A stretch of DNA of 45,142 nucleotides from contig JBFRWI010000214.1 of assembly GCA_051439505.1 (NCBI GenBank), positions 1 through 45,142 on the forward strand, written 5' to 3'. Made by a program: the position numbers and the translations under genes. Below, piece after piece: positions 12,333 through 45,142 of this stretch. The notes beneath the pieces were generated by a model. That model did no database searches and was not told where the DNA came from. It saw only the letters and a list, made by a program, of their open reading frames with translations. The stretch comes from Hormoscilla sp. Lineage in GTDB: Bacteria > Cyanobacteriota > Cyanobacteriia > Cyanobacteriales > Desertifilaceae. How positions within the stretch are numbered: the first letter of the stretch is position 1; each line of letters opens with the position of its first letter.

Positions 12333-12396
12333 GTAGGGGCACGGCATCGGTAAATTAACAGGAAAGTCCGAGAATTAGCTAGCGCCGTGCCCCTGC
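12333..12396 (+). repeat. GTAGGGGCACGGCA...GCCGTGCCCC REP hairpin (same stem as the TA-array repeat, different loop)
   Basis: The stem is identical to that of the copies at 40178-44945. Confidence 0.8.
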
Positions 12397-35069: not shown

Positions 35070-35253
35070 TCAGTTGTCAAATGCCAAGTCTGTCTCTACT
35101 TCGTAATATTGCTCGATCGCCTCTTGAATACGTTCGGAAAGTCAGACCGCCGGGGGTTCAAACCCCCGGTTAATAGTTAAAGGCGGTAATGTGCAACGCC
35201 AGATTTCGCTTGTGTATGAGATCCAGGCATACTCGGTACAGAAGCAACTAAGT
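35070..35253 (-). pseudogene. Degenerate second hicB copy interrupted by a REP element
   Basis: The minus strand gives LVASVPSMPGSHTQAKS, then the insert, then LSERIQEAIEQYYEVETDLA, matching the neighbouring HicB. Confidence 0.8.
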
Positions 35254-35264
35254 TCTGCTAATCT

Positions 35265-35489
35265 TCACAACAGCACCCTGAATTCCTCACGATTCATCTC
35301 GCAATCGCGCATGATCTGTGCAAGCAAACCAGCACCAATTGTTTCACCAGCGTGTACAGGAACAATAGTCCGACGCCCATCACTATGGATTAGAATATGG
35401 TGAGATCCGCGAACCCTTGCGACTTCAAAACCTACTTTACGAAGGGCTGCAATCACCTCGCGACCGGTCAAACTCGGTAGTTTAGTCAT
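35265..35489 (-). CDS. hicA: HicA family toxin
   Basis: LRKVGF..RVRGSHHIL.HSDGRRTIVPVH pattern. Confidence 0.92.
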   Translation of the reverse strand: MTKLPSLTGREVIAALRKVGFEVARVRGSHHILIHSDGRRTIVPVHAGETIGAGLLAQIMRDCEMNREEFRVLL

Positions 35490-35701
35490 ACTTCAACGGA
35501 AATTCTCTGAACGCCAACAAAGTCGAGAGACTCTGCTAAGTCTCCCTCTACTTCTAAATAAAGCTCGATCGCCTCTTGAATACGTTCCATAAGTTGATCT
35601 AAAGACTTTGCTTGTGTATGACATCCAGGCAGACTTGGCACAGAAGCAACTAAGTAGCCTTCAGAATCCTTCTCGATGATCACGTTAAATTTTCTGTTCA
35701 T
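35486..35701 (-). CDS. hicB: HicB family antitoxin (short form)
   Basis: FNVIIEKDSEGYLVASVPSLPGCHTQAKS; ATGA overlap with hicA. Confidence 0.92.
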   Translation of the reverse strand: MNRKFNVIIEKDSEGYLVASVPSLPGCHTQAKSLDQLMERIQEAIELYLEVEGDLAESLDFVGVQRISVEV

Positions 35702-39267: not shown

Positions 39268-39520
39268 ATGAGCAATTTACAAACCCAAATACCCAGGCAT
39301 ACATGGGTGACAACTTCTTGGGAAGAATACATCCAGGTTATTGATTCAGAAGAGGTTGATGAAAAAACCAAGTGCTACTATCACCAAGGAGAACTGAGAA
39401 TTGAAATGTCACCTGTAGGTCATGACCATTCCTGCGCTCACGCGATTATCTCTTTGGCGGTCAATTTGTTTGGCATCATCAAAGGCATTCCGCTTAAAGG
39501 TTTAATTATCTGTAGTTACC
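39268..39520 (+). pseudogene. Truncated Uma2 family endonuclease (N-terminal part only)
   Basis: W...SWEEY...KCYYHQGELRIEMSPVGHDH pattern. Similarity ends at ~39520, where a CCCCGATCGC repeat block begins. Confidence 0.8.
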
Positions 39521-39543
39521 CCCCACCCCGATCGCATCGGACC

Positions 39544-39605
39544 GGTGTACAGCCTATTTGACATTTTCATCCTTTACCGAAACTTCTTTGATGCCGTACC
39601 GCTAC
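39544..39605 (-). repeat. Array repeat, inverted divergent copy
   Basis: The minus strand reads GTAGCGGTACGGCATCAAAGAAGTTTCGGT...AAATGTCA...GCTGTACACC. Confidence 0.75.
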
Positions 39606-39704
39606 AACCGGTATTCTATTATACCTGTTTTTTGGCCGCCGTCACCCCGATCGCCCCCTACACCGAGACTCTGTGGTGGCGCGATCGCTTGCATTTACCG
39701 TGCT

Positions 39705-39827
39705 TTATAATTGCGATATCAGCTTATCATAATCAGCGTGGGAACCTATCCAAAACAAAATCATGCAGTCTTCTTCTTTAACGCCAACCGCTCGCCACCC
39801 TAAAGCAACTCTGACTGAATAAGTAGT
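39705..39827 (-). pseudogene. C-terminal remnant of a RelE/ParE-like toxin
   Basis: Reads YSVRVALGWRAVGVKEEDCMILFWIGSHADYDKLISQL* with no start codon; the N-terminal half is missing. Confidence 0.75.
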
Positions 39828-40038
39828 CTAAAATTGTAATGCTTTGGTTTTGCCTTGTTTTAATTCTGCCAATGCTTCATCCGCTAGTTGCGCAAGTTGC
39901 GGTTGGGAATTGGCAAAGGCTTCACTCCACCGCTTTTCTGATGCAATTTCTTCTAAAATTAGGATGGCGATCGCCGGAATGTTCTTCTGGTGGTAGTCCA
40001 GACATGGCCGCGATCGCTTCTTCTAGTAATCTGGTCAT
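39828..40038 (-). pseudogene. Frameshifted small antitoxin-like gene
   Basis: MTRLLEEAIAAMSGLPPEE, then a shift near 39975, then AIAILILEEIASEKRWSEAFANSQPQLAQLADEALAELKQGKTKALQF*. Confidence 0.75.
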
Positions 40039-40177
40039 TGGTCACTCTCCGGAAATATTTGACTATCGCTTTCTTTATTTATTCTACTACACCGTCCGCC
40101 CCTTCACTCGCCTGCCCCCCTGATCGCCCCCCACCCCGATCGCCCCTTTGCCGCGTTAATCACCCTGTAAGACACCG

Positions 40178-40335
40178 GTAGGGGCACGGCATCCGAAAAT
40201 TATCGGTTTATTGCAAATGTTACTGTCGCCGTGCCCCCGATCGCATCCCCATGTTTGCCCGATCGCATCGGACCGGGGCACGGCAATTTTACATTTTTAT
40301 CGTCACCGAAACTTCGAGAAATGCCGTCGCACTTA
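40178..40335. repeat. Array repeat doublet: forward copy 40178-40237 plus inverted copy 40275-40335
   Basis: GTAGGGGCACGGCATCCGAAAATTATCGGTTTATTGCAAATGTTACTGTCGCCGTGCCCC followed by an inverted degenerate copy. Confidence 0.9.
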
Positions 40336-40575
40336 TACCGCTTCTTCCAGAACTCTAGCATGCAAAACCTGATTAGCATTTAACAGTTGAATTTGCGAGG
40401 AGGCTACCGTAACCACGGCAATAGTTTCTCCTATGGCATTAAACACCTCCAGACTGTAGCCATCTTCAGGAGATGCTGGGTGATGTTCTACAATTGTCGC
40501 TACATCTCCACGACGCAATTTATACTCAGGGATATCCTCTTGTAATGTTACCATCTTAAACATTTCTAAAGCCAT
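40333..40575 (-). CDS. DUF4926 domain protein (putative antitoxin/immunity)
   Basis: VTL.EDIPEYKLRRGDVATIVE...GYSLEVFNAIGETIAVVTV pattern. Confidence 0.85.
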   Translation of the reverse strand: MALEMFKMVTLQEDIPEYKLRRGDVATIVEHHPASPEDGYSLEVFNAIGETIAVVTVASSQIQLLNANQVLHARVLEEAV

Positions 40576-40915
40576 TGTTTGTAGCTCCTTTATCTGGAAA
40601 CAGGGTAATAAATTTCGTTTGTCCTAACTCTGACTCGATCATCCAAATAGTAATCACTTGCAGACTCATCCCATTGGGACCAGTTAAGGTTCCTCTGATT
40701 CTATACTTATCACCATAGCGCGTCTGTTCGATTAATGTCGCATCTAATGGCAAAATTTGCTCCCTCAAATCCCTTTCTAGTTGCTGCCAGTTCTCTTGAT
40801 AATAGCCTGCTCGTGCCAGAAACAGTGATTTATCATCCTTGGGAATGTATTTTAGCAGATACTGGGTAATTTTTGCTTCCGCAATTATGGTATTAGCAGA
40901 TAGTTTCACCTGCAT
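40556..40915 (-). CDS. DUF6883-like protein (putative toxin)
   Basis: KITQYLL...DKSLFL..AGY...YGDKY...LTGPNG...TIW...KFITLFP pattern; overlaps the DUF4926 gene. Confidence 0.8.
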   Translation of the reverse strand: MQVKLSANTIIAEAKITQYLLKYIPKDDKSLFLARAGYYQENWQQLERDLREQILPLDATLIEQTRYGDKYRIRGTLTGPNGMSLQVITIWMIESELGQTKFITLFPDKGATNNGFRNV

Positions 40916-41007
40916 CTTCCGATAACTTTAGCTTCCATCGCTAATTCTACCTTCACGTTGTTAAGGTGAACACCCCCTCACGCCCCCTCACGCGCTGTAG
41001 GACACCA

Positions 41008-41067
41008 GTAGGGGCACGGCATCCGAAAATTATCGGTTGATTGCAAATTTTCCTGTCGCCGTGCCCC
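41008..41067 (+). repeat. Array repeat, forward copy
   Basis: 57 of 60 bases identical to 40178-40237. Confidence 0.92.
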
Positions 41068-41120
41068 GGCTATTTATGAGCGATCGCATAAAGGATGAAA
41101 GTGCGATCGCGCCAGCATAG

Positions 41121-41477
41121 CTATTCGGAGTATTTGACGCCAACGGGTTCACCTTCTATCAATCTGAACAAAGACTCTTCGCTATCAACCTCTATCTGGG
41201 AATAAGTAATTTCTGTACCATCATCGGGTATCTCTTCTGGATCTGAGCAGGTAATTAGTTTTCTAATCCCCCCATATGCTAAACTTGCTGGGCGGTCTTC
41301 CCACTTAAAATCATCCGAATTTATTTCATCTTCTTTTGCCCGCTTTGCCGCCCGTTCAAATGCTTCTTCATCTGAGCTTCCTTTGATTAAAATTACATTT
41401 TCCCAAACTGGATATTTATCTTGCTCTCCCTCCTTGAATTTTACATACATTATTGCGTGTGCTGCATACCATACCAT
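41121..41477 (-). CDS. DUF4288-like protein (putative immunity protein)
   Basis: WYAAHAIMY...WENVILIKGSSDEEAFERA...DGTEIT pattern; acidic; GAGGAGG RBS. Confidence 0.8.
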   Translation of the reverse strand: MVWYAAHAIMYVKFKEGEQDKYPVWENVILIKGSSDEEAFERAAKRAKEDEINSDDFKWEDRPASLAYGGIRKLITCSDPEEIPDDGTEITYSQIEVDSEESLFRLIEGEPVGVKYSE

Positions 41478-41515
41478 GTTTCACCTCCTCTTTACTCTGT
41501 AGCATTTCCTAATAG

Positions 41516-41953
41516 CTAACTACTTGAGTCTCTATTGACTCTTTTTTGTTTGTTCCGGCAACCTAAAAACTTCTCTGCTTGTTGCATTGCTTTAATCAGT
41601 TCTCGATCGCGTTCATCTTTCGGTTTAGCTTTTTCTTGACTCAATCGTTCGGCAATTATCTCACAGGGTTCTCTTCCAGTTAACTGCGCTTCCTCTTTAA
41701 CTGACTCTGTAACAAAATTACTTCCCTTTTGTCTTGACTTGCTAAAGAAAATAAAACCTCCAATTGCTGCAACACCTATAACGCAAGCGCTAATAATATC
41801 GCCATTTGGTAAAGTCCGATCGGTTAATGAAGCACCAGCTGCAATTGGTAATACCTCACTTACGGCATCCTTATCTCTCGCTGCAACCAGAAGGTTTACC
41901 TCGTTCCATTCTAACTCGCCTACGGCACTTGTAGCTATCTCAGTCTTTGGCAT
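41516..41953 (-). CDS. Hypothetical protein resembling a polymorphic-toxin C-terminal domain
   Basis: A hydrophobic hairpin (IISACVIGVAAIGGFIFFSK) followed by a basic helical tail PCEII...AEKFLGCRNKQKR; lies upstream of an acidic partner. Confidence 0.65.
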   Translation of the reverse strand: MPKTEIATSAVGELEWNEVNLLVAARDKDAVSEVLPIAAGASLTDRTLPNGDIISACVIGVAAIGGFIFFSKSRQKGSNFVTESVKEEAQLTGREPCEIIAERLSQEKAKPKDERDRELIKAMQQAEKFLGCRNKQKRVNRDSSS

Positions 41954-42044
41954 AGTTCTTTACTCAGACTCCTTATTTCATTATCAAACAGTTTTCCTGC
42001 TGCCCGATCGCCCCCCCCGATCGCATCCCGATCGCATTTTTCCA

Positions 42045-42102
42045 GTGTACGGCAGAGCGTGACATTTTCCTATGAACCGAAACCTCTCGTGCTGCCGTAC
42101 AC
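42045..42102 (-). repeat. Array repeat, inverted copy with a compensated stem
   Basis: GTGTACGGCAG...CTGCCGTACAC stem. The flank ACAACCGGTATTCTATT is shared with the 39544 copy. Confidence 0.8.
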
Positions 42103-42144
42103 AACCGGTATTCTATTCTACCTTATTTTTGGCCACGGAGGCCA

Positions 42145-42345
42145 TTACGATCGTCCTAACCGCCGCTTTACCTCTTCTAATGTAACCGTTGGCAATTGAC
42201 TTTCTGACTGCTTAGCTTCTCGCAGATCTCTAAGGTCTTCTAGATCGGCAAGCAACTCTTCTATACGGACGAATTCCTCGTAGGGCAAGACCGCAAATTC
42301 TTTCTTACCATTCTTGCTTAAAAACTCTGGATGTAGTGAGATCAT
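42145..42345 (-). CDS. Putative type II antitoxin (Phd/YefM-like)
   Basis: KNGKKEFAVLPYEEF...LEDLRDLREAK...TLEEVK pattern; downstream of a RelE gene. Confidence 0.8.
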   Translation of the reverse strand: MISLHPEFLSKNGKKEFAVLPYEEFVRIEELLADLEDLRDLREAKQSESQLPTVTLEEVKRRLGRS

Positions 42346-42360
42346 CTTCTCTTCCTCTTC

Positions 42361-42609
42361 TCAAGAATAAGCTTGGCTGCGATGTTTGATGCGGTAAATT
42401 ACTACCACATCCTCTTCTATTTCAAATAATACGCAGTAGTCTCCTACTCTCAACCTATATTCAGGTGTAAAGTTTGTCAACCGCTTCACGTCCCCTGCTA
42501 AGTTATCCTTTAGCCCTTCTATTTTAGCCAAAACTCTGCTGATGTTCTCGGTGCTAAGAGACTCTAAATCTTTAATGGCCCTGGGTTTAAAATCAACTGT
42601 ATATTCCAC
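42361..42609 (-). CDS. RelE/ParE family toxin
   Basis: GTG start after GGAGG; RAIKDL...DVKRL...YRLRVGDYCVLFEI...IKHRSQAY. Confidence 0.9.
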   Translation of the reverse strand: MEYTVDFKPRAIKDLESLSTENISRVLAKIEGLKDNLAGDVKRLTNFTPEYRLRVGDYCVLFEIEEDVVVIYRIKHRSQAYS

Positions 42610-42771
42610 TTGCCCTCCAATAATTCAGCAGTATAATGCATTCTGTGTACGCTACCCTAAGATCATTTTATTCTACATTATAACTTAACCAGAGCTACTG
42701 AGCACCGTTATAAAATTATGCCCGATCGCCCGCCCGATCGCCCCTTTGCCGCCTTAATCACCCTGTAGGAC

Positions 42772-42830
42772 GTAGGGGCACGGCATCAGAAAATTGTCGG
42801 TTGATTGCAATGTTACTGTCGCCGTGCCCC
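42772..42830 (+). repeat. Array repeat, forward copy
   Basis: GTAGGGGCACGGCATCAGAAAATTGTCGG...GCCGTGCCCC. The upstream flank is shared with the 40178 copy. Confidence 0.9.
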
Positions 42831-43020
42831 GGCTGTTTATTCCCGATCGCATCCCCGATGACAGCCCGATCGCCTTCCCCCTCGCGCCTTCGGACCACGT
42901 CACCCAGGGCCCCGCAGTGGCCAGTTCCGCCACTACTTTTATCTTTTCGCTCCGGGATGCTATGGGAGATTTGTTATGCTATACTATCACACAGGTCACC
43001 TAGTTGCTGAAACTCACTCC

Positions 43021-43473
43021 ATGAAGATTTATTTAGATACTAGCGCATTGAATAGAATCTTTGATGACCAATCTCAGGGGAGAATCTATCTAGAGTCTGT
43101 GTCAATGGAGCTGATCTTCTTATTGATTGTCAATCAAACTGTGTCAATTGTATCCTCAGAGGCTCTCAATTTTGAAACTGATAATAATCCTTATAGCGAG
43201 CGGCGAATATTTATCGAAAAAGTGCTAAAAAATGCGAGTAATTTTCAAATCTTGAATGTCGAAATTTTAGCCAGGGCTGAGGAGATAGAAACCACGATGA
43301 ATATTAATGGAATGGACTCCCTGCATTTAGCCTGTGCGGAAAATATGAGGGTTGATTATTTTATTACTTGTGACGATCGCATGATAAAAAGGTATCGGGG
43401 AGATATGATTGTCATAAATCCCACTGCATTTGCTAATGATGCTATTAACACAGGAGGCGAAAATGACAAGTAA
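43021..43473 (+). CDS. PIN domain (VapC-like) toxin
   Basis: MKIYLDTS..NR.FDDQSQ, DSLHLACA and DYFITCDD motifs. Confidence 0.9.
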   Translation: MKIYLDTSALNRIFDDQSQGRIYLESVSMELIFLLIVNQTVSIVSSEALNFETDNNPYSERRIFIEKVLKNASNFQILNVEILARAEEIETTMNINGMDSLHLACAENMRVDYFITCDDRMIKRYRGDMIVINPTAFANDAINTGGENDK

Positions 43474-43675
43474 ATTGGTTGTTCCGAAAATGGAGTCTAT
43501 TAGGATTGAAGGTATGAAAGCAATTATCGATCGATTGGGAATTGCTCAAGCGGCTTTCTTTTTCCGTGCTAATCTTTCCCAAGAGGTGGATTATTTACAA
43601 GTAAAATCGGAGATGTTTGGCAATAAATCTGCTAGGGGACTTTATGGAGAGATTAAAAACCATAGTTCGGTGTAA
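43463..43675 (+). CDS. Small putative antitoxin partner of the PIN protein
   Basis: AGGAGG RBS, ATG 43463 overlapping the PIN gene end, 70 aa with ..LGIAQAAFF...DYL pattern. Confidence 0.75.
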   Translation: MTSKLVVPKMESIRIEGMKAIIDRLGIAQAAFFFRANLSQEVDYLQVKSEMFGNKSARGLYGEIKNHSSV

Positions 43676-43773
43676 TAGCAGCTTGAGAATGTGAGCGATC
43701 TCCCGTTATCGCCGCTGCACCCGCTCGCCCCCTCCCCCCCCGCTCGCCCCCCCGATCGCGCTGTGGGACACCG

Positions 43774-43833
43774 GTAGGGGCACGGCATCCGAAAATTATC
43801 GGTTTATTGCAAATGTTACTGTCGCCGTGCCCC
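43774..43833 (+). repeat. Array repeat, forward copy
   Basis: Identical 60-mer to 40178-40237. Confidence 0.92.
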
Positions 43834-43878
43834 GGCTGAAAATGAGCGATCGCATCCCCATGAAAGCCCGATCGCATG

Positions 43879-44027
43879 GGGTGTGGTCATGCATCAGTTG
43901 GTACGGTGAGACCTCCCGTGGGGGGCAGAAACCGGGTTTGGACGTCAATAGCTGGTTATTGCCTCTGTATCGATCAAAGAAACCCGGTTTCTTGTCTGTT
44001 GGCTATCAACCACTTGTGACCACACCC
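43879..44027. mobile_element. Divergent GGGTGTGGTCA MITE carrying an AGAAACCGGGTTT/AAACCCGGTTTCT REP
   Basis: 11-bp TIRs; subterminal CAGTTGGTACGG shared with the 11609 copy; flanks GATCGCATG/GATCGCCCG (7 of 9 match). Confidence 0.75.
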
Positions 44028-44169
44028 GATCGCCCGCCCGATCGCAGCTAGCACCGGCCCATGTAGCGGATGAAGATACTGGCGCCGCTGCATGTAGCCC
44101 GATCTCAGAAAATCGGTTATAATCATATTTGTAAGCAATAAATCATGGCGCTTTGTTGCGCTTTGACCT

Positions 44170-44424
44170 ATGGAAATAGCAAATAAAGACAATTGGGGCT
44201 CGCGCATTACCACCGACCCCCAAATTATGTCCGGACGCCCCTGCATTCGCGGCATGAGAATTACCGTATCCTTAGTTCTGAGTTTGGTGGCTTCGGAGAT
44301 GACAACCTCAGAGATTCTTGAGGCTTATCCCTATTTGGAAGCAGAGGATATTAAAGCCAGCCTTCAGTATGCTGCATTTTTGGCACAGTCGCCAATAAGT
44401 CCTTTTAGCGGGGTTAGTGCATGA
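44170..44424 (+). CDS. DUF433 domain antitoxin
   Basis: RITTDPQIMSGRPCIRGMRITV...EILEAYPYLEAEDI...YAA. Confidence 0.92.
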   Translation: MEIANKDNWGSRITTDPQIMSGRPCIRGMRITVSLVLSLVASEMTTSEILEAYPYLEAEDIKASLQYAAFLAQSPISPFSGVSA

Positions 44425-44783
44425 AGTTTCTTGCAGATATGGGTGTTTCTCCCTTGACTGTTCAAGCACTCAGACAAGAAGGATACGATGCAGTCCATCT
44501 ATACGAGCAAGGGTTGTATCGCCTTCCGGATCCGGAAATTATGGAGAAGGCTAGACTAGAGGAGCGAATTGTTTTAACCTTCGATCTAGATTTTGGCGAA
44601 CTATTGGCGATAAGTACTGCAAATCTACCCAGTGTGATTATTTTTAGATTATCCACTACTGTACCGGATTTTGTTACTGCGAGATTGCTGTCTATTATTT
44701 TAGAGTGCGGTGCTGATTTGGAGCGCGGGGCAATTGTGACAGTAGAAAATGCTCGATACCGACTGCGACAATTGCCAATATGA
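44421..44783 (+). CDS. DUF5615 PIN-like toxin
   Basis: MKFLADMGVS...GYDAVH...D.EI...RIVLTFDLDFGEL; ATGA overlap. Confidence 0.92.
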   Translation: MKFLADMGVSPLTVQALRQEGYDAVHLYEQGLYRLPDPEIMEKARLEERIVLTFDLDFGELLAISTANLPSVIIFRLSTTVPDFVTARLLSIILECGADLERGAIVTVENARYRLRQLPI

Positions 44784-44860
44784 AGGCGATCGCCCCCTCC
44801 CCGATCGCCCGATCGCCCCTTCCCCGATCGCCCCTTCCCCGATCGCGCCAGAGGACACCG

Positions 44861-44945
44861 GTAGGGGCACGGCATCCGAAAATTATCGGCGGTCCCTGAG
44901 CGTGAGCCGAAGGGTTTATTGCAAATCTTACTGTCGCCGTGCCCC
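44861..44945 (+). repeat. Array repeat, forward copy with a 25-bp insertion in the loop
   Basis: Insertion CGGTCCCTGAGCGTGAGCCGAAGGG at 44890-44914. Confidence 0.9.
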
Positions 44946-45085
44946 GGCTGAAAATGAGCGATCGCATCCCCATGAAAGCCCGATCGCATCCCCGGTCCTT
45001 AGTTGACCTGTGAAACCGGGTTTCTTTTAGGACAATACTAATGCCTGACGAGAAACCCGGTTTCTGAGAATACTTGACGGATGTC

Positions 45086-45142
45086 CTAGATCTCAACGAC
45101 AACGCCATCGATAATGGTCAGATTATCCGCCAAGATTGTACC
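45086..45142 (-). CDS. Possible 3' end of a gene continuing beyond the window
   Basis: The minus frame reads GTILADNLTIIDGVVVEI*, which is too short to identify. Confidence 0.35.
   Translation of the reverse strand, partial: GTILADNLTIIDGVVVEI

Follow-up and report, generated by a model that had tools for sequence, protein, structure and literature searches.

Toxin-antitoxin cassette arrays with polarised REP-derived and HIP1-core spacers are reshuffled among Hormoscilla genomes

In Hormoscilla genomes, small two-gene modules, many of them toxin-antitoxin (TA) pairs, are reshuffled between arrays whose spacers keep a strict polarity, whose repeats are mosaics and whose blocks recur nearly identical in different species. 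We think it probable (roughly 0.6) that the arrays form a genus-specific, integrase-free, homology-driven cassette pool. The spacers between modules would then be REP-derived direct repeats of two subtypes, A and B, together with one-strand runs of CCCGATCGC, and RecA-dependent recombination between spacers or modules would delete, duplicate and reorder modules and copy blocks across loci and species. Spacers and shared modules point in the same direction, so RecA recombination could rearrange them and could not invert them. The window referred to below is the whole stretch of DNA analysed, 45,142 nucleotides of contig JBFRWI010000214.1, from the genome here called G000; it is compared with four congeners, G001 to G004.

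Results

Positions 39520 to 44990 of the window hold six two-gene modules (M1 to M6): four type II TA-type pairs, one DUF6883/DUF4926 pair and one orphan RHS toxin tip with DUF4288. One or two hairpin copies lie in each gap that separates modules, and also at the right border. A first-pass annotation had located eight copies of one hairpin of about 60 bp; all eight were found in place, but they belong to two subtypes. It had also counted seven modules, of which the six pairs stand, but the seventh, Uma2, is the chromosomal gene that received the array. The 5' part of this gene (39268 to 39520, forward strand), 88% identical until 39520 to an intact 214-aa Uma2 of G002, forms the left border, and a few bases at the fusion are common to Uma2 and a HIP1-core run. 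That run leads into a B repeat on the reverse strand that has a conserved tail and keeps its GTAG foot (39521 to 39638; hairpin 39542 to 39606). M1 (39705 to 40038, reverse) is decayed, with a frameshifted antitoxin gene (39828 to 40038) and a ParE-like toxin remnant that has an internal deletion (39705 to 39822); its intact paralogue lies on contig C103 of G000. An A repeat (40178 to 40237, forward) and a B repeat with foot and tail deleted (40273 to 40327, reverse) form a BIME/REPIN-like doublet before the intact M2 (40333 to 40915, reverse), which pairs DUF6883 (119 aa) with DUF4926 (80 aa) and has six copies over five array stretches. Next come an A repeat followed by HIP1 sites (41008 to 41070, forward) and M3 (41121 to 41953, reverse), with a putative RHS-type toxin tip of 145 aa (41516 to 41953) and DUF4288 as its putative immunity protein (41121 to 41477). 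A triple CCCGATCGC run (42003 to 42035) and a B repeat without GTAG foot (42043 to 42101, reverse) separate M3 from the intact M4 (42145 to 42609, reverse), a ParE/RelE toxin (82 aa) with a Phd-like antitoxin (66 aa). Behind an A repeat (42772 to 42833, forward) lies the intact M5 (43021 to 43675, forward), a PIN toxin of about 150 aa with a small downstream partner; a second M5 variant is present at full depth in runs X1 and X2 and absent from the assembly. A further A repeat (43774 to 43836, forward) precedes the intact M6 (44170 to 44783, forward), in which DUF433 (84 aa) adjoins a PIN-like DUF5615 protein (120 aa). The array closes on the forward strand (44787 to 44989) with a HIP1-core run, an A repeat (44861 to 44948) split by a 25-bp dispersed palindromic element (44890 to 44914), and HIP1 sites; the contig, and with it the window, ends at 45142. 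At about 43880 to 44028, after the A repeat that follows M5, lies a member of another, unrelated family of dispersed repeats. The window also contains a partial duplication of hicAB without repeats.

Pfam matches above cut-off in the window were DUF4926, DUF6883, DUF4288, ParE, PIN, DUF433 and DUF5615, and the Uma2 fragment (E 0.0025), the ParE-like remnant of M1 and the Phd-like protein of M4 matched below it. Type II two-gene families have Pfam support for M4, M5 and M6, and YoeB, GNAT/TacA, PIN and UPF0175 occur among the congeners' modules. None of ten window proteins matched PADLOC models of known anti-phage defence.

Array stretches, 13 in all, occur in each of the five genomes, and those of the four congeners are related arrays at other loci. 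They draw on a pool of 17 modules, which recur at different loci within a genome, and their 52 joints comprise 43 distinct neighbour pairs. The graph of joints between intact modules contains 29 cycles, including both M3 to M10 and M10 to M3, so deletion from a single master order is insufficient; gain, loss and reordering of modules across strains, as foreseen in the first-pass annotation, are thus borne out. Among shared unique segments, 237 are on the same strand and none is inverted, nor is any module inverted anywhere, and within arrays all 25 A repeats run forward and all 30 B repeats reverse. Repeat spacers do mark the joints, as had been proposed: the motif CGATCG is present at 36 of 36 intact joints (control: 40.6% of 3186 intergenic regions) and A or B at 29 of 36, the content being A, B, AB, BB, ABA or, in seven cases, neither. 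At 16 of the 52 joints a module is cut. Crossovers within the repeats number at least 5 minimum intervals in A and 9 in B, spread along their length, and four-gamete incompatibility, for which recurrent mutation is an alternative source, grows with distance (A, 5/78 near against 113/300 far; B, 13/161 against 278/785). Overlaps at 23 junctions lie between -30 and +22 bases, and microhomology is therefore not a constant feature; HFIR, in the excerpted text of PMC3240628, leaves 3 to 10 bp of microhomology behind. G003 and G004 have common array blocks of 534, 868, 1671 and 1567 bp at 100, 99.8, 99.0 and 98.5% identity and are 93.9, 95.0 and 97.4% identical at three core loci; binning cross-talk may account for the near-identity of the blocks, and even core identity goes as high as 97.4%.

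The window array is the densest 5-kb stretch of one-strand CCCGATCGC in G000 (18:0), and the strand ratio of this motif is 144:3 in arrays against 1316:1244 genome-wide. Triple runs fall inside such arrays in 8 of 8 cases in G001, 1 of 1 in G003 and 9 of 11 in G000. A second G000 array (contigs C127 and C13) is free of REPs, its only punctuation being HIP1-core runs on one strand; it holds CdiA-CT RNase/CdiI, ParDE, HicAB and others, with a 2197-aa CARDB/S8/PPC gene in front. These features, the CGATCG at every intact joint and the combinations in which A and B appear, as if they were blocks, would suit an exchange directed by HIP1 itself, in which methylated CGATCG cores would be cut, or strand exchange begun there, by some host activity; the modules, A and B would each be a block bounded by HIP1, and the REP hairpins would merely travel along. 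Excerpts of PMC4390886 also link HIP1 to site-specific recombination. We nevertheless consider this reading doubtful. HIP1 accompanies homology ends, which are not independent events, in 26% against 11% and, at module edges, in 33% against 23%, a modest enrichment of 1.5- to 2.3-fold that may only reflect hypervariable runs; crossovers fall inside hairpins too; HIP1 runs have no genome-wide association with TA genes (1/96 against 58/1686); and just 5 of the 11 triple-run matches of G004 are in arrays.

The hairpin belongs to a genome-wide GTAG REP family, whose 192 copies in G000 group into 100 clusters and are distributed over 63 contigs. The family as a whole is not significantly associated with TA genes in that genome (9/96 against 98/1686, p=0.18), and the enrichment beside TA genes for which a test had been suggested is not supported for the repeat in general. 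Only subtypes A and B, set in one-strand HIP1-core runs, are array-linked: all 23 A-core matches are confined to arrays, and in G000 the top 7 A-profile and top 5 B-profile matches all lie within three array loci, with a small score gap after the top B matches (56 against 51 bits). The first-pass annotation had held that an evenly spread repeat, with order fixed or breakpoints outside it, would speak against its capture platform. By that yardstick the evidence goes half against the platform: a general TA link is not supported and many breakpoints lie outside repeats (168 of 254 homology ends), but order is not fixed. An ordinary TA hotspot, in which TA genes gather wherever a genome prone to rearrangement tolerates them, chance co-amplified a REP doublet, and module order merely follows from decay, duplication and translocation that favour no particular joint, would account for those off-repeat ends and the many truncated modules. 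It would also fit the 96 of 100 TA marker matches of G000 that lie outside the array, the TA clusters without A, B or HIP1 spacers in the congeners, the repeat-free hicAB duplication and the clustering and erosion of TA genes in Photorhabdus (excerpts of PMC13617665). Such a hotspot is unlikely, as it fails to predict the absence of inversions, the polarity shared by all 55 A and B copies, the repeat or HIP1 run found at every intact joint, the confinement of the A core and the recurrence of modules at different loci within one genome.

The family shows the traits of REP/BIME elements, namely the GTAG foot, the hairpin, high intergenic copy number and inverted doublets; its array hairpins are decaying. 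Likeness is 89 to 95% within A, 64 to 71% within B and 62 to 65% between the two. Two of three window B copies have lost the foot. In folding, two B copies do not surpass shuffled sequences (z -1.30 and -0.47), whereas five other copies reach z -2.2 to -4.0. A GTAG/GTGG foot is kept by 39 of 54 array copies against 158 of 166 dispersed ones, and a stem of at least 8 of 9 pairs by 22 of 54 against 143 of 166. Capture by a RAYT/TnpA-REP, an HUH transposase that would bind GTAG hairpins on single-stranded DNA and excise or insert modules, now or in the past, has in its favour that long GTAG-footed REPs in inverted doublets are the type described for subclass 2.4 and related TnpA-REP of cyanobacteria (excerpts of PMC6006769), that RAYT genes exist in all five genomes and that a subclass-2.4-like gene of G001 has a comparable family of long REPs on its flanks. 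It is nonetheless quite improbable. The two above-cut-off RAYTs of G000 have other REP families alongside, and none of the RAYT/Y1 loci of the five genomes is flanked by clusters of the array's family; the only copy nearby is a single one of dispersed type, at a distance of 323 bp from a RAYT that scores below cut-off. Feet and stems are lost in array hairpins, homology continues 30 to 45 bases beyond the feet with no fixed cut position, and homology ends are not enriched inside hairpins (7.5% against 6.1% expected). The RAYT or site-specific role suggested for the hairpin, and the flanking RAYT that was to be sought, thus found no support.

The arrays are integrase-less, as first described, in that PF00589 (tyrosine recombinase) has no match in G000, G001, G002 or G004 (genomes searched, 93 to 97% complete). 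G003 has two matches, on a small contig without A or B repeats, both partial and scoring 60 and 70 bits against an integron-integrase cut-off of 265. The attC boxes of integrons have the consensus RYYYAAC ... GTTRRRY; no such pair 30 to 150 bases apart was found on either strand between 39500 and 45000, and an Rfam search gave no match of note.

In run X2, one contig crosses the junction of Uma2 and array with the same depth as the flanks, and a second covers 41010 to 42000, although X2 may be the window's source and is thus not independent. No circular or low-frequency intermediate of the arrays was observed, which contigs would in any case be unable to reveal. That the differing orders are artefacts of assembling or binning repeat-rich metagenomes is hardly credible: six array stretches stop where their contig does, indels are present in part of the congener copies and X1 and X2 hold extra full-depth joints absent from G000, but the repeats are diverged and shorter than 100 bp, contigs bridge several window joints, G001 arrays sit inside contigs of 0.9 to 3.1 Mb and eight of the neighbour pairs are found in at least two stretches.

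All seven array stretches with an assembled right border adjoin, within about 2 kb, a giant surface-protein gene or fragment that reads toward the array. These genes are of Ig, cadherin, PPC and RHS types, with the array at their 3' end; no intact RHS gene was found ahead of any A/B array, and the window's right border is a contig end. M3 and a DUF4258 pair fit the polymorphic toxin pattern of a toxin tip with its immunity gene. The 145-aa M3 product matched nothing in Pfam, NCBIfam or PADLOC; elsewhere its domain is the C-terminus of RHS proteins of 580 to 3168 aa, and DUF4288 follows a similar domain at 3 of 5 metagenome loci. M3 thus points to an undescribed putative RHS toxin-tip family with DUF4288 as candidate immunity protein.

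Discussion

In the cassette pool that we favour, DNA would enter by natural transformation, and new DNA would be gained and old modules eroded by events of which one end is homologous and the other illegitimate, the Uma2 junction being an example. We infer RecA, competence and HIP1 as agents, and the arrays may benefit the host; recA and comEC are stop-free in all five genomes. In Synechococcus PCC 7002, integration is reported to rise with homologous HIP1 sites (abstract of 10.1101/2024.09.10.611283). Repeats of 60 to 90 bp at 62 to 95% likeness are short for efficient RecA exchange. Being short and diverged, A and B may leave the role of usual anchor to shared modules. The position of the arrays 3' of giant genes, and their orphan tip and immunity pairs, make it probable that they grew from the tails of giant RHS/adhesin loci, polymorphic-toxin tails that would later have been filled with type II TA pairs.

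Several known systems resemble these arrays in part. Integron arrays share the tandem, TA-rich small modules, the same-direction hairpin repeats and the variable content and order of same-polarity cassettes, and integron TA cassettes may have their own promoters (excerpts of PMC8876359). Unlike integrons, the present arrays have no IntI, no attC boxes and two repeat types in place of one site per cassette; a single fixed crossover at cassette ends was not seen, mid-gene fusions are many, and several arrays per genome exchange blocks. Polymorphic toxin (RHS/CDI) and polyimmunity loci also vary in content between strains (excerpts of PMC3482391), and the position behind giant genes and the orphan pairs recall them; here, however, type II TA pairs prevail over tips recombinable onto an RHS core, exchange appears to pass through intergenic repeats, and the adjacent XerC/D-type recombinase reported for some polyimmunity loci is absent. 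The rAID orphan-immunity arrays of Bacteroides are integron-like, with repeated intergenic sequences, immunity genes as cargo and an adjacent tyrosine recombinase, which the arrays described here lack. REP/BIME/REPIN systems with their RAYTs (excerpts of PMC6006769) match in GTAG foot, long hairpin, inverted doublets and intergenic-type copies (192 per genome), but no cognate RAYT was found here and the array subtypes are decaying and separate gene modules. In Photorhabdus hotspots, type II TA pairs likewise cluster, turn over fast and become pseudogenes, but those clusters are tied to transposases and integrases, and the excerpted account (PMC13617665) contains neither polarised repeat spacers nor reordering of a shared pool.

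We raise tentatively, as a possibility of lower standing than the cassette pool, that the arrays are a selected integron analogue without integrase, in which strand-polarised HIP1-core runs, whether or not joined by domesticated REP halves, serve as host-recognised exchange points through which competent cyanobacteria capture and reorder TA and toxin-immunity cassettes and trade them between loci and species. If so, HIP1 would gain a natural, visible job, and the C127/C13 array, which has no REPs, would be another candidate instance. Were the arrays an ordinary hotspot, they would merely be a striking case of repeat-driven instability. As a homology-driven cassette pool, they would represent integron-like cassette shuffling in marine cyanobacterial genomes of which most have no tyrosine recombinase at all, and their natural crossovers would bear on the function of HIP1, a question of long standing.

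Results

The array of the window (39520-44990) draws on a module pool shared across the genus, as a DNA search of the four congeners (G001 to G004) with the array showed its modules again in arrays elsewhere. In a comparison set of 13 array stretches from five genomes and several different chromosomal sites, six of which stop at contig ends, we defined 17 recurring modules. These are mostly type II toxin-antitoxin (TA) pairs (YoeB, GNAT/TacA, ParE, PIN, DUF433/DUF5615 and UPF0175), and the non-TA members are two toxin-tip/immunity-like pairs and small unknowns. The module reordering across strains that the first-pass annotation had proposed to look for is evident, with 43 different ordered pairs among 52 joints. 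One pair occurs in both orders (M10 before M3 in G004 and M3 before M10 in G001), and the 36 joints between intact modules yield a graph with 29 cycles. Because of these cycles, deletion from a single ancestral order cannot account for the observed module orders.

Array polarity is strict: 237 shared segments lie on the same strand and none is inverted, all 25 A repeats are forward and all 30 B repeats reverse, and CCCGATCGC has a strand ratio of 144:3 in arrays. CGATCG, the core of HIP1, is present in all 36 intact joints compared with 40.6% of 3186 control intergenic regions, and A and/or B is found in 29 of the 36. The other 16 of the 52 joints cut a module, nine of them as direct fusions, and A or B occurs in only one of the 16. 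Outside the genus, single modules were matched at 67-79% in 27 of 296 genomes; A/B repeats and HIP1-core runs were missing from all 20 such single-module loci examined in other genera, and one locus contained dispersed-type REPs. Triple HIP1-core-run sites lacking A/B arrays were found at two further places in G004 and at one in genome G022.

The positions of the eight hairpin copies and all modules in the first-pass annotation were confirmed. An iterated profile places the hairpin in a GTAG-footed REP family spread over the whole genome of the window, where it has 192 copies (100 clusters, 63 contigs), many as inverted doublets; one lone dispersed-type copy lies in the window outside the array (12333-12394). 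The array copies fall into two subtypes, A and B, which are 62-65% alike. In this genome, the best seven A and best five B profile matches are confined to three loci, namely the window array and contigs C103 and C228. All 23 matches to the A-core pattern across the five genus genomes lie within arrays, and there was no match in nine other genomes of the family. Array copies are poorer hairpins than dispersed copies, with a GTAG/GTGG foot in 39 of 54 against 158 of 166 and a stem of at least 8 of 9 pairs in 22 of 54 against 143 of 166. The last A repeat of the window carries an inserted 25-bp palindromic element (44890-44914) whose core has 19 copies in the genome, and which we take to resemble the small dispersed repeats of cyanobacteria.

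The window's genome (6.47 Mb in 232 contigs, the window being contig C214) contains 6450 HIP1 octamers and is thus that of a HIP1-rich cyanobacterium. One array protein has a homologue, 95% identical, that carries the label Hormoscilla. The ruvB-TPR neighborhood, which had been put forward for comparing the array between strains, is ruled out as a conserved array site, as none of the four congeners has an array there. In G002, ruvB-TPR is followed by an intact Uma2 gene whose homology to the window ends at 39520, where the window passes into a HIP1-core run and then a B repeat. The congeners' next gene at this site is found on a different contig in the window's genome. Uma2, previously counted as a module, is therefore a cut chromosomal gene, and the array copy of the window is placed at a rearrangement joint. 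One contig of a public sequencing run bridges the Uma2/array joint at flank depth, and the public runs, which probably derive from the source sample, contain additional joints at full depth and another variant of the PIN module that are absent from the assembly; this evidence consists of contigs only and is blind to circles and rare variants. Elsewhere in the window lies a hicAB pair (35080-35701). Its hicA is absent in G001, G002 and G004; in the window, hicA has a duplicated 3' part of hicB and a different REP family at its flanks.

A second array in the same genome lacks A/B and lies behind the gene for a 2197-aa secreted CARDB/S8/PPC/amidase protein (C127:23800-27892, L080, and C13:24900-28979, L081). 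Its modules (an unknown pair, a C39-like pair, ParE/ParD, a CdiA-CT RNase with CdiI, HicAB and a nucleotidyltransferase) are spaced by one-strand HIP1-core runs in the same layout as in the A/B arrays. The two contig ends have one module in common and probably join.

Discussion

The first-pass annotation read the array as an integrase-less, integron-analogous platform, and its first element is upheld. Recombinases of PF00589, XerC/D included, were found in none of G000 (the window's genome), G001, G002 and G004, which are 93-96% complete, compared with 14 of 14 control genomes, and the window array has no attC-type boxes. G003 has two PF00589 matches, on a contig without A/B repeats and far under the integron-integrase cut-off. 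Serine resolvases (PF00239) occur in all five genomes, where none adjoins an array. A RAYT flanked by the same REP, also suggested, did not emerge. The three RAYT-type genes of G000 (C230:12484-13059, C24:23539-24135 and C169:15688-16536) each have a different flanking repeat family, those above the cut-off being flanked by REP families other than the array's; a subclass-2.4-like RAYT gene in G001 (locus L154) is flanked by a long GTAG REP that is similar in build but distinct, and the genus-wide search found a single lone dispersed-type copy near any RAYT-like gene. The likeness to integron arrays lies in outcome, a variable and polarized cassette string. The array is neither an integron nor a REPtron, because the defining enzymes and sites of the former and the enzyme with cognate-REP arrangement of the latter were tested and not found.

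G-quadruplexes were considered and set aside as not specific: of the 60 G4-like motifs that contain a CGATCG core in the whole genome, 3 are in the window array and 8 in the array loci taken together. Neither the promoter scan (13 versus 10.4) nor the terminator scan (7 versus 4.8) stood out from shuffled sequence, and no usable match came from Rfam, PADLOC or the protein Atlas. No published account of such arrays was found in the literature searched, which leaves out most subscription journals, and the word "antitoxin" is absent from the main text of two genome papers on the genus.

An association of the repeats with TA genes across the genome was not borne out. Outside the array, the broad REP family lies within 800 bp of 9 of 96 TA markers and 98 of 1686 small control genes (p=0.18) and within 500 bp of 7 and 78 (p=0.22), with markers from five Pfam families only and control genes from simple gene calls; HIP1 runs show no significant TA enrichment beside them either. 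TA clusters without the repeats are also present in the genus, and erosion of clustered TA pairs has been described before (PMC13617665); both count against our reading, as do the six stretches that stop at contig ends.

The array repeats have a mosaic structure: the share of incompatible site pairs climbs from 6-8% for close sites to 35-38% for distant ones, and crossover intervals are spread along the repeats (at least five in A and at least nine in B). Homology ends, counted as non-independent events, are not enriched inside hairpins (19 of 254 versus 6.1% expected); they fall at CGATCG in 66 of 254 cases versus 11.4% and, for ends at module edges, in 57 of 172 versus 22.9%, a modest enrichment. 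The proposal that the repeats act as joints is supported at most intact joints but not at the module-cutting ones, and 168 of the 254 ends lie at neither hairpins nor CGATCG. Array blocks of 0.5-1.7 kb are 98.5-100% alike between G003 and G004, compared with 93.9-97.4% at three core loci, which suggests recent transfer, with the caveat that binning cross-talk could give the same pattern. Homologous recombination would be the simplest mechanism, acting between spacers that point the same way and between modules held in common; all five genomes have intact recA and comEC. A/B repeats are short for RecA, and the heterogeneous junction overlaps count against the proposed mechanism, as does the lack of any intermediate among the contigs. 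Added events may have had one homologous and one illegitimate end, as in HFIR (PMC3240628). HIP1 may also favor array recombination: homologous, methylated HIP1 sites increase integration in PCC 7002 (10.1101/2024.09.10.611283), and earlier links of HIP1 to site-specific recombination have been reviewed (PMC4390886). We consider the stronger reading of a selected, HIP1-jointed exchange platform unlikely.

The right borders point to where the arrays may have arisen. Seven stretches have an assembled right border, and in each a giant Ig/cadherin/PPC/LVIVD/RHS gene, or a piece of one, lies within about 2 kb and reads toward the array. In G002, the site that corresponds to the right-hand border of the largest array of G001 is a polymorphic RHS locus (C1:617001-637000, L071) with several different tips on RHS cores and repeated DUF6714/LRR immunity-like genes, interspersed with two TA modules common to the arrays. 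The 145-aa ORF of the window has only three close relatives; its domain forms the C-terminal end of proteins as long as 3168 aa, four of the five scanned being RHS proteins, and a domain like it stands ahead of DUF4288 in three of five metagenome loci. By this arrangement, DUF4288 is a candidate immunity protein for the 145-aa RHS-type tip. The domain of this tip (tip and DUF4288 at window 41121-41953) represents an unnamed family of RHS C-terminal domains with 49 matches, several at RHS protein ends. Given the giant-gene borders and the RHS tips and TA modules of the G002 locus, the arrays look, from gene content and order, like the tails of polymorphic-toxin loci (PMC3482391) that have been colonized by type II TA pairs.
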